This document shows, one piece after another, positions 11,246 to 20,964 of a stretch of 30,886 nt of DNA. Within the stretch, counting starts at the first letter, position 1, and each line of letters begins with the position of its first letter. A program made the position numbers and the translations under genes. The DNA lies in the NCBI RefSeq assembly GCF_003334765.1, contig NZ_QOWT01000042.1. The stretch is one strand, 5' to 3'. The stretch comes from Escherichia coli. GTDB taxonomy: Bacteria > Pseudomonadota > Gammaproteobacteria > Enterobacterales > Enterobacteriaceae. The notes below the pieces were generated by a model. That model searched no databases. It was not told the origin of the DNA and saw only the letters and a list, made by a program, of their open reading frames with translations.

Positions 11246-11913
11246 AATAAAGAAAACCTTTTAACGCCAAAACAAAAAAAGTATTTCGTCGCGTAGTGTA
11301 AGCGATCACTTATTATATTTCCACAAAATTTAATCTATTTACAGTCCTGCGCGAGATTATTTCAGCTGTTATTTTCTGAAACTCTCAGAATAATTTCAAG
11401 ATTATATATTAGCCATTTTGATGAGTAATTTAGATTATTGGTGAACAGAGCGGCGCTCTCTGCTCGCTAATTCCGCAAGCCTGACAAAATCAAAGTGAAT
11501 AAAAATGCAATATAACAGAATAAAAGAAAACATCCATCACTGGTGCTTTCTGCTGTTAATGTACATTGTCTGGCATAAAAAATGCTGAAAATGACCCAGC
11601 TACTACATACACCGAATTCTCTACGCTTATAGCGTTACCTCACCCCCAAACTTTCATTAGTGATATTAAAGGTAAGGCCATATCTAATTGATTTAATTAA
11701 AAATAAATCATATCGGCATGTAAAAATCCACAATGTACAAAAAACGAGCCGTTACGGAATATTTTATCTACAAAAACTGACTAAATAAAAATTTTTCACT
11801 AATTGATTAGTCATAGCCAGCGATATACGCTATGCGAAAATGCAGATGGCAATGAGATCCACTGCTTTCATCTCCATTAACATCCCATTACGCTTTTATT
11901 AAGGAGCATTAGC

Positions 11914-16242: not shown

Positions 16243-17211
<969 letters not shown>

Positions 17212-17325
17212 GGGTGTTATTTTCAAAAATATCACTACCCGCAGCAGGGAAATAATTCCCGCCAAATAGCTTTTTATCACGCAAATAATTTGTGGTGATC
17301 TACACTGATACTCTGTTGCATTATT

Positions 17326-17357
17326 CGCCTGAAACCACAATATTCAGGCGTTTTTTC
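17326..17357 (+). terminator. Rho-independent terminator downstream of nrdF
   Basis: Stem cgcctgaa / ttcaggcg (17326-17333 / 17343-17350), loop accacaata, then tttttt (17351-17356). Confidence 0.6.
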
Positions 17358-17469
17358 GCTATCTTTGACAAAAAATATCAACTTTCTCGATTTGCTCTCA
17401 GCCCTTATATCACGGGAAATTCCGGCGATTTGCTCGCATCAATATTCATGCCACATTTGCCATCAGGGG

Positions 17470-17497
17470 TTGCCTCAGATTCTCAGTATGTTAGGGT
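17470..17497 (+). promoter_or_regulatory. proU P2 (sigma-70) osmoregulated promoter: -35 ttgcct (17470-17475), 16-bp spacer, -10 tagggt (17492-17497)
   Basis: Hexamers read directly; they match the proU P2 promoter as I recall it (non-canonical TAGGGT -10), roughly 60-70 nt upstream of the proV ATG. Confidence 0.7.
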
Positions 17498-17564
17498 AGA
17501 AAAAAGTGACTATTTCCATTGGGTAATATATCGACATAGACAAATAAAGGAATCTTTCTATTGC

Positions 17565-18767
17565 ATGGCAATTAAATTAGAAATTAAAAATCTTTATAAA
17601 ATATTTGGCGAGCATCCACAGCGAGCGTTCAAATATATCGAACAAGGACTTTCAAAAGAACAAATTCTGGAAAAAACTGGGCTATCGCTTGGCGTAAAAG
17701 ACGCCAGTCTGGCCATTGAAGAAGGCGAGATATTTGTCATCATGGGATTATCCGGCTCGGGTAAATCCACAATGGTACGCCTTCTCAATCGCCTGATTGA
17801 ACCCACCCGCGGGCAAGTGCTGATTGATGGTGTGGATATTGCCAAAATATCCGACGCCGAACTCCGTGAGGTGCGCAGAAAAAAGATTGCGATGGTCTTC
17901 CAGTCCTTTGCCTTAATGCCGCATATGACCGTGCTGGACAATACTGCGTTCGGTATGGAATTGGCCGGAATTAATGCCGAAGAACGCCGGGAAAAAGCCC
18001 TTGATGCACTGCGTCAGGTCGGGCTGGAAAATTATGCCCACAGCTACCCGGATGAACTCTCTGGCGGGATGCGTCAACGTGTGGGATTAGCCCGCGCGTT
18101 AGCGATTAATCCGGATATATTATTAATGGACGAAGCCTTCTCGGCGCTCGATCCATTAATTCGCACCGAGATGCAGGATGAGCTGGTAAAATTACAGGCG
18201 AAACATCAGCGCACCATTGTCTTTATTTCCCACGATCTTGATGAAGCCATGCGTATTGGCGACCGAATTGCCATTATGCAAAATGGTGAAGTGGTACAGG
18301 TCGGCACACCGGATGAAATTCTCAATAATCCGGCGAATGATTATGTCCGTACCTTCTTCCGTGGCGTTGATATTAGTCAGGTATTCAGTGCGAAAGATAT
18401 TGCCCGCCGGACACCGAATGGCTTAATTCGTAAAACCCCTGGCTTCGGCCCACGTTCGGCACTGAAATTATTGCAGGATGAAGATCGCGAATATGGCTAC
18501 GTTATCGAACGCGGTAATAAGTTTGTCGGCGCAGTCTCCATCGATTCGCTTAAAACCGCGTTAACGCAGCAGCAAGGTCTTGATGCGGCGCTGATTGATG
18601 CGCCGTTAGCAGTCGATGCACAAACGCCTCTTAGCGAGTTGCTCTCTCATGTCGGACAGGCACCCTGTGCGGTGCCCGTGGTCGACGAGGACCAACAGTA
18701 TGTCGGCATCATTTCGAAAGGAATGCTGCTGCGCGCTTTAGATCGTGAGGGGGTAAATAATGGCTGA
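17565..18767 (+). CDS. proV: Glycine betaine/proline ABC transporter ATP-binding subunit, 400 aa
   Basis: Track ORF 17292..18767 trimmed to ATG 17565 ([22 protein letters not shown]...); Walker [10 protein letters not shown]; C-terminal tandem CBS-like region. Confidence 0.93.
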
Positions 18768-20883: not shown

Positions 20884-20964
20884 GGGCGGATAAGGCGTTT
20901 TTGCCGCATCCGCCGTTCTGTGCACAATGCCTGATGCGACGCTGGCGCGTCTTATCATGCCTAC
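20884..20964. repeat. REP/BIME pair downstream of proX
   Basis: gggcggataaggcgtttttgccgcatccgcc (20884-20913) and gcctgatgcgacgctggcgcgtcttatcatgcctac (20929-20964) are typical REP palindromes. Confidence 0.65.

Follow-up and report, generated by a model that had tools for sequence, protein, structure and literature searches.

The segment between positions 17465 and 17681 of the window, the 30,886-nt stretch of Escherichia coli DNA analyzed here, constitutes, with a probability of roughly 96%, the core regulatory region of the proVWX (proU) operon, comprising the P2 promoter and an AT-rich H-NS silencer. This is an already known locus that has been mapped experimentally for decades. The promoter and silencer are identified because sequence, positions and conservation match the mapped K-12 locus, while the start sites, footprints and effects of H-NS and potassium come from published experiments; for the start sites, the H-NS footprints and the osmotic response, the basis is the map and supplement of Rashid et al. 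(2023; PMC10656529) and, as represented there, the papers of 1989-2001 that it cites. K-12-derived E. coli chromosomes match the window at 100% identity over a segment of 601 nt around P2 and the start of proV; this segment is carried by 5421 of the 5426 complete E. coli genomes, and the 51 nt around P2 recur unchanged in 4598 genomes. RefSeq annotation of the identical DNA gives the gene order nrdH-nrdI-nrdE-nrdF followed by proV-proW-proX, with nrdF at 16252-17211 and the proV open reading frame, which encodes the ATP-binding subunit of the ProU glycine betaine/proline ABC transporter, at 17565-18767 on the plus strand. The P2 region hence occupies the nrdF-proV intergenic region and the beginning of proV, directly 5′ of proVWX; an Rfam search of the nrdF-proV region returned no RNA family. 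proU is the model for how osmolarity controls transcription and how H-NS silences genes, and the correct call shows that a real promoter of non-consensus sequence can be picked from raw sequence, while adding no new biology.

The initial annotation had read a TTGCCT/16 bp/TAGGGT arrangement at this position and assigned it to the osmoregulated proU P2 promoter. TTGCCT is present at 17470-17475 and TAGGGT at 17492-17497 (plus strand), separated by a spacer (CAGATTCTCAGTATGT, 17476-17491) of exactly 16 nt, and both hexamers agree base for base with the published -35 and -10 boxes. Comparison with published proU maps, proposed at the time as a check, was made by converting Supplementary Data 1A of Rashid et al. 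(2023) to window coordinates through the addition of 15610, an offset checked against the start of proV (map position 1955, here 17565) and against the printed DRE sequence, which begins AGGGGTTGCCT at 17465. After conversion the -35 and -10 boxes, both start sites, the URE and DRE, the footprints and the IHF site all fall onto elements observed here. The σ70 start (P2) is mapped between 17504 and 17505 and the σS start (P1) between 17314 and 17315 (map 1704/1705), in keeping with the placement of P2 and P1 at 60 and 250 bp 5′ of proV (PMC10656529), and the NRE extends over 17253-18685. An IHF binding region that overlaps P2 (17472-17529, unstranded) is also marked on the map, which cites Khodr (2015) for it; the IHF consensus has only weak matches within this interval (2 mismatches), and no IHF site is claimed from the sequence by itself. 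The supplements of Adams et al. (2021; PMC7815308), which list 3′ ends and not start sites, hold no entry at MG1655 28047xx, the region of the P2 start, and a literature search on proU together with TAGGGT returned unrelated papers only.

The hexamers are poor ones, TTGCCT matching TTGACA at four of six positions and TAGGGT matching TATAAT at three of six, and a generic promoter consensus scan of 16900-18100 reported nothing. The scan missed P2 because TAGGGT has only these three matches, a matter of thresholds and not of absence. Both observations could nevertheless be taken to mean that TTGCCT/TAGGGT is a chance match and that the true osmoregulated promoter stands elsewhere in the intergenic region, the more so as TGNTAGGGT alone is not rare, being present in 32 of 100 shuffled sequences. 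Such a coincidence is extremely improbable: 100 shuffles never produced the full 28-nt composite, of which the window has a single copy, its placement agrees with the published -35, -10 and start site, and no other non-coding part of the region is conserved as well across a whole bacterial order.

P2 has a further feature that had gone unremarked in the initial annotation, a TG at 17489-17490 (-15/-14) that yields the extended -10 motif TGTTAGGGT at 17489-17497 (plus strand). In promoters of this kind the TG compensates for weak hexamers. The conservation of these elements was followed in 80 Enterobacterales proV loci (ProV identity 73-99%) obtained from a single scan of representative genomes. 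The pattern TTGnCn-N16-TAnnnT lies within 200 nt 5′ of the ATG in 79/81 sequences; every one of these 79 promoters carries TG at -15/-14, and P2 is for this reason regarded as an extended -10 promoter. TAGGGT itself is found in 68 of the 79 scorable promoters, and the 11 variants (TACGGT, TAGGTT and TAGTGT) are no closer to TATAAT; the first T, the A at the second position and the final T of the -10 box are invariant (79/79), so that only the three central positions vary. At the -35 box, TTGCCT as found in E. coli is a minority form, TTGTCT and TTGTCA being dominant in other genera. When the 81 sequences are aligned, no non-coding stretch between nrdF and proV is better conserved than 17466-17499, spacer included. 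The order-wide retention of the TG together with a G+C-rich -10 argues that the 'defective' -10 is a selected feature and not the product of decay. Taken with the synonymous-site data given below, these comparisons show that purifying selection acts order-wide on the DNA of both the G+C-rich -10 and the AT-rich start of proV; the -10 box would, we infer, be selected as part of the osmotic switch. That TGnTAGGGT is kept throughout the order is a small, modest new point of this analysis. In published work the three G:C pairs of the non-consensus P2 -10 hinder melting, and K-glutamate stimulates the promoter in vitro (PMC10656529).

With P2 +1 at A17505, as on the published map, the transcript begins with an AT-rich 5′ UTR of 60 nt (17505-17564, plus strand) containing the Shine-Dalgarno sequence AGGA at 17548-17551; the ATG at 17565 minus 60 gives 17505, equal to the mapped start. 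This 60-nt leader represents an allele that lacks a C before the Shine-Dalgarno sequence and is shared with K-12 and at least 3104 of the 5426 E. coli genomes, while a 61-nt leader is found in the other E. coli locus examined (L002), E. albertii, the aligned Salmonella, Citrobacter and Enterobacter sequences, a Klebsiella sp. and Kosakonia. An in-frame open reading frame of 491 aa (17292-18767) was considered as a possible N-terminally extended ProV or upstream open reading frame and rejected: the frame is open only in the allele without the one C in the leader, and the large majority of other loci have an in-frame stop close 5′ of the ATG, typically after 6 codons.

A conspicuously AT-rich stretch had been noted in the first part of the proV coding sequence and ascribed to the H-NS-bound downstream silencer. 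The tract is real, 17565-17700 having 33.8% GC against 51.1% for the window (within the lowest 2.7% of 136-nt segments) and the first 49 nt of proV having 22.4% (lowest 0.6%), but its onset is at about the P2 start site, upstream of the ATG, and not at the ATG itself. The 60-nt 5′ UTR is likewise low in GC (31.7%), and the lowest-GC 100 nt of the entire 30.9-kb window are those at 17507-17606 (23%). The silencer assignment is upheld by the correspondence of the tract with the published DRE (17465-17681, unstranded), the H-NS silencer that covers P2, the 5′ UTR and the first 39 proV codons, and whose GC content of 33.6% equals the 66.4% AT stated for it (PMC10656529). Within it, the 'strong' H-NS DNase I footprint attributed on that map to Lucht (1994) occupies 17568-17613, precisely the AT-rich beginning of proV singled out in the initial annotation, and further downstream footprints are drawn at 17624-17645 and 17653-17685.

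The tract also contains two exact copies of the high-affinity H-NS nucleation sequence TCGATATATT, both on the minus strand and separated by 107 nt; the window as a whole would be expected to contain 0.08 copies. The first, at 17525-17534 (P2 +21 to +30), and the second, at 17632-17641 (P2 +128 to +137, proV codons 23-26), correspond to 'proV 1' and 'proV 2' in Table 1 of Lang et al. (2007), the sites from which the H-NS motif (tCGATAAATT family) was derived, and the second lies inside the footprint at 17624-17645 as the map renders it from Lucht (1994). Lang et al. (2007) place the second site at +130 relative to the translation start; in the present coordinates this figure is counted from the transcription start. 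Exact TCGATATATT is not conserved beyond a few genera, site 2 being mostly TCAATATATT and site 1 often absent or mismatched, and the nucleation sites defined in K-12 are for this reason best regarded as lineage-specific and the AT-richness as the general feature.

AT-richness at the beginning of proV extends to synonymous positions. Codons 2-14 have A/T at 81% of third positions, with a synonymous-codon entropy of 0.81 bits, compared with 46% and 1.28 bits for codons 80-400, and in almost every locus, GC-rich genomes included, GC3 of the first 45 codons is lower than that of the rest of proV (0.44 vs 0.76 in L065). The persistence of the A/T bias of codons 2-14 in GC-rich genera is a second small and modest new point. 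Since the bias is strongest only in codons 2-14, the stretch over which such effects on translation usually act, the AT-rich first ∼15 codons might be kept mainly for an unstructured start-codon mRNA and efficient initiation, with H-NS binding as a by-product. Folding is in agreement with this: an RNA made up of the P2 leader and the initial 136 nt of proV is less stable than its shuffled counterparts (z = +1.73; 194/200 of them fold at least as well), and a structured 5′ leader RNA from P2, sought in the same comparison, was not found. The tract, however, runs from 17498 to about 17685, far exceeding a ribosome footprint; both exact high-affinity H-NS sites lie inside it, and it agrees with the DNase I footprints as drawn on the map; and recoding of the DRE from 66.4 to 51.6% AT (NT644 DRE mutant) raised transcripts up to ∼6.5-fold at low salt (PMC10656529). 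A primarily translational explanation therefore appears rather unlikely. A role in translation is compatible with the H-NS explanation, which it does not replace, and part of the AT-richness could serve initiation.

Downstream of the DRE, a conserved RNA hairpin is located inside proV (17705-17799, plus strand; fold -40 kcal/mol, z = -3.55), at the published site of RNase III processing, mapped as a conserved degradation site at 17710-17799 (Rashid et al., 2023). It displays the strongest synonymous-site constraint in the gene. A Term-seq 3′ end reported at 17785 (Adams et al., 2021; PMC7815308) lies within the hairpin and fits an RNase III cut in its 3′ arm. The hairpin is outside the range covered by the initial annotation, yet it is part of the same regulatory region.

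Upstream of P2, the map places the URE, H-NS-bound and intrinsically curved, at 17276-17458 (1666-1848 + 15610; unstranded), together with H-NS footprints that it credits to Lucht (1994); the GC content of this interval is 38.8%. Inside the URE is a block of 23 nt, TCAGCCCTTATATCACGGGAAAT (17398-17420, unstranded; P2 -107 to -85), that is found in 39/81 sequences, representing nearly all of the sampled Enterobacteriaceae genera, always 71-72 nt 5′ of the start of the -35 box and embedded in variable flanking DNA. A consensus RNA structure around the block was sought on both strands and amounted to a trivial 3-bp stem, and a literature search for its sequence returned nothing relevant. Tentatively, TCAGCCCTTATATCAYGGGAAAT (17398-17420) may be a discrete, uncharacterized cis-element of proU regulation, a suggestion that we put forward as possible and not as probable; it could be the site of a specific protein, or a fixed anchor on which the helical phasing of the URE-DRE bridge formed by H-NS depends. 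To our knowledge, no operon-specific regulator of proU has emerged from decades of genetics, and for that reason a specific-protein site or phase anchor would, if real, be of consequence. The conserved block is the third small and modest new point of this analysis.

The region further upstream contains the second promoter and, immediately behind it, an intrinsic terminator 3′ of nrdF. The terminator (17326-17356, plus strand) is composed of an 8-bp stem with 5 G:C pairs (CGCCUGAA, 17326-17333, pairing with UUCAGGCG, 17343-17350), a 9-nt loop and a tract of six U residues (17351-17356), and the hairpin folds at -12.6 kcal/mol (z = -3.2). A generic terminator scan of 16900-18100 reported nothing; it missed this hairpin because the loop is 9 nt and the maximum of the scan is 8. 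Experimental support comes from a Term-seq 3′ end at MG1655 2804606, which corresponds to window position 17356, the last U, and was detected in M63 only and classed as 'orphan' (Adams et al., 2021; PMC7815308). The offset between MG1655 and window coordinates (2787250) was checked with another 3′ end, which is given as position 220 within proV. The claim of the initial annotation that the nrdF terminator lies within the leader of P1 transcripts holds good, the hairpin occupying +12 to +42 of the P1 transcript and the Term-seq end falling 42 nt after the P1 start. A candidate -10 for P1, CTACACT with C at -13, is present at 17300-17306 (plus strand), 8 nt before the published start, from which position the assignment is inferred. 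The form CTA[CT]A[CT]T at about -265 from the ATG is restricted to the Escherichia/Salmonella/Citrobacter/Enterobacter group (∼21/81 sequences). P1 is σS-dependent and is cryptic through Rho-dependent termination (PMC10656529).

The position of the hairpin invites the idea that it is not simply the nrdHIEF terminator and that it mainly attenuates the P1 transcript, adding to the crypticity of P1. Apart from its location at the very beginning of the P1 RNA, the hairpin stands 237-239 nt from the proV ATG, at a fixed distance from the P1 -10, in all 21 loci with that box, and its stem has been kept with both-sided compensatory changes in 6 + 2 of 19 relatives. Such changes occur even in genera without the U-tract: in Enterobacter-like genera the U-tract has been lost and the hairpin kept, and in those genera it is therefore not a canonical terminator. 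The classification of the 3′ end as an orphan, and not as the end of nrdF, also suits attenuation. Against this, the crypticity of P1 has been credited to Rho-dependent termination, the 3′ end appears only in minimal medium, which makes nrdHIEF its likelier origin, and is missing from LB cultures in stationary phase, when σS is active, and the hairpin also persists in a few loci that lack the P1 -10 box. In Salmonella, work by Rajkumari and colleagues in 1997 reportedly located an attenuation region at +63 to +84, with P1 transcripts detectable up to +60; transcripts of that length run past the hairpin and so count against attenuation by it. On balance, attenuation of P1 as the main function of 17326-17356 is improbable.

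The mechanism that best explains these elements is, as a whole, the published one; the elements, their positions and their conservation are reported here, and binding, starts and the osmotic response are taken from the literature. In this scheme σ70 RNA polymerase would start at A17505 from P2, with its TTGCCT, 16-nt spacer, TG and a deliberately poor, G+C-rich TAGGGT. At low osmolarity H-NS would nucleate at the two identical TCGATATATT sites and spread over the AT-rich DNA that begins at the start site and reaches some 40 codons into proV, and bridging of the DRE to the upstream element at 17276-17458 would then block initiation and promoter escape. Upon hyperosmotic shock the influx of potassium (K-glutamate) would loosen the H-NS bridges and would also directly help the hard-to-melt -10 to open, so that transcription would rise. 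The cryptic σS promoter P1, with its start at 17315, would read straight into the nrdF-distal terminator at 17326-17356. Nothing in the present data contradicts the identification of proU P2.

Among known systems, the closest is E. coli K-12 proU P2 with its URE and DRE (NRE), which is the same locus: the -35, the -10, the start, the two H-NS sites, the footprints and the limits of the DRE coincide, and no difference was found, the 60-nt-leader allele of the window also being that of K-12. Salmonella Typhimurium proU and its downstream silencer (Overdier and Csonka, 1992, and Fletcher and Csonka, 1995, as cited in later work) share this architecture. In an S. enterica locus of the present set (L009) the promoter reads TTGTCT-N16-TAGGGT, again with TG; the leader is 61 nt long, the first codons are AT-rich in the same way, and both the P1 box CTACACT and the hairpin are present. 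This locus differs from E. coli in having TTGTCT and not TTGCCT as its -35 and in H-NS sites that are each one base off (AACATATCGA and AATATATTGA). P2 resembles extended -10 (TGn) σ70 promoters in carrying TG one base 5′ of the -10 hexamer, although the G+C-rich center of that hexamer (GGG) is unusual for this class, and P2 also has a recognizable -35 in which TTG is conserved. Finally, in the E. coli bgl operon, as outlined by Nagarajavel et al. (2007), H-NS likewise binds both 5′ of the promoter and inside the first gene, and the two elements cooperate as they do in proU; bgl is a different operon that responds to a different signal, and its likeness to proU is one of function only.

Within proV lies a long RNA hairpin (17705-17799; fold of -40 kcal/mol, z = -3.55) that coincides with the strongest synonymous-site constraint of the gene, at codons 48-79, where synonymous-site entropy is 0.63 bits as against 1.28 bits. 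In the predicted fold, 17721 pairs with 17784, and the 5′ arm is reportedly cut by RNase III at +217/+218, which corresponds to 17721/17722 in the window. A cut by RNase III at this position should, under the 2-nt 3′-overhang rule, leave a 3′ end at 17785. This is the exact position of a 3′ end mapped by Term-seq in all three growth conditions and classified as Rho-independent (Adams 2021, PMC7815308).

The hairpin downstream of nrdF (CCTGAA-N8-10-TTCAGG; 17326-17350), which together with its U-tract forms a terminator inside the leader of the cryptic P1 promoter, is kept in a series of the Enterobacterales proV loci aligned (L004-L022, L026, L033, L034, L036, and L073). Its distance to the proV ATG is 225-239 nt, and 236-239 nt in all loci except L020. 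Because the hairpin is also kept in genera in which AAATTTC replaces the U-tract, as well as in a few loci that do not have the P1 -10 box, it may have a role beyond ending nrdF transcripts.

Further toward P2, the sigma70 promoter of proU, is a 23-nt block (17398-17420; TCAGCCCTTATATCAYGGGAAAT) that is present in 39 of the 81 proV loci, drawn from nearly all genera sampled in the family Enterobacteriaceae, and absent from loci of Yersinia, Serratia, Erwinia, Pectobacterium, and Photorhabdus. Its distance from the P2 -35 box, which lies downstream, is always 71-72 nt, and the DNA flanking the block varies across loci. Read on the minus strand (TGATATAAG), its sequence resembles an extended -10 box; a literature search by block sequence and an RNA structure search of both strands found no function for it. 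A second small conserved block, ACAAAAAATATCA (17367-17380), is found ∼20-30 nt further upstream, and the two share the sequence ATATCA (17375-17380 and 17407-17412) at a spacing of 32 nt, or about three helical turns.

The P2 leader of the window is missing one C at 17547-17548 (CAAATAA-AGGA vs. CAAATAACAGGA elsewhere) and is therefore 60 nt rather than 61 nt in length. A leader with the extra C is carried by the second E. coli locus in the comparison (L002), by E. albertii, and by the five other genera aligned. The 60-nt allele is common among E. coli, being carried by at least 3104 of 5426 genomes; an in-frame ORF of 491 aa (17292-18767) that it creates was rejected as spurious.

Directly after the proX stop codon, between proX and ygaY, is an Rfam match (72 bits; 20884-20961) to naRNA4, a nucleoid-associated non-coding RNA derived from REP repeats. 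The ygaY gene is the partner in a published bridge with the proU DRE (Rashid 2023, PMC10656529). The intergenic region upstream of the minus-strand stpA gene (10841-11245) is likely to be another region bound by H-NS/StpA; at 11312-11790 it contains three 100-nt stretches (25-29% GC) that rank among the ten lowest in GC of the whole window. Other features detected include the MicA small RNA adjoining luxS (27559-27630; Rfam, 84 bits) and, at the right end, two tRNA genes (30544-30617 and 30819-30886), the match to the second extending to the window end.

Counted from the P2 transcription start, the second H-NS site of proV (17632-17641) occupies +128 to +137; counted from the proV ATG, it occupies +68 to +77. 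It has been described as lying at +130 from the translation start (Lang 2007), a figure that, by window coordinates, agrees with a count from the P2 transcription start.
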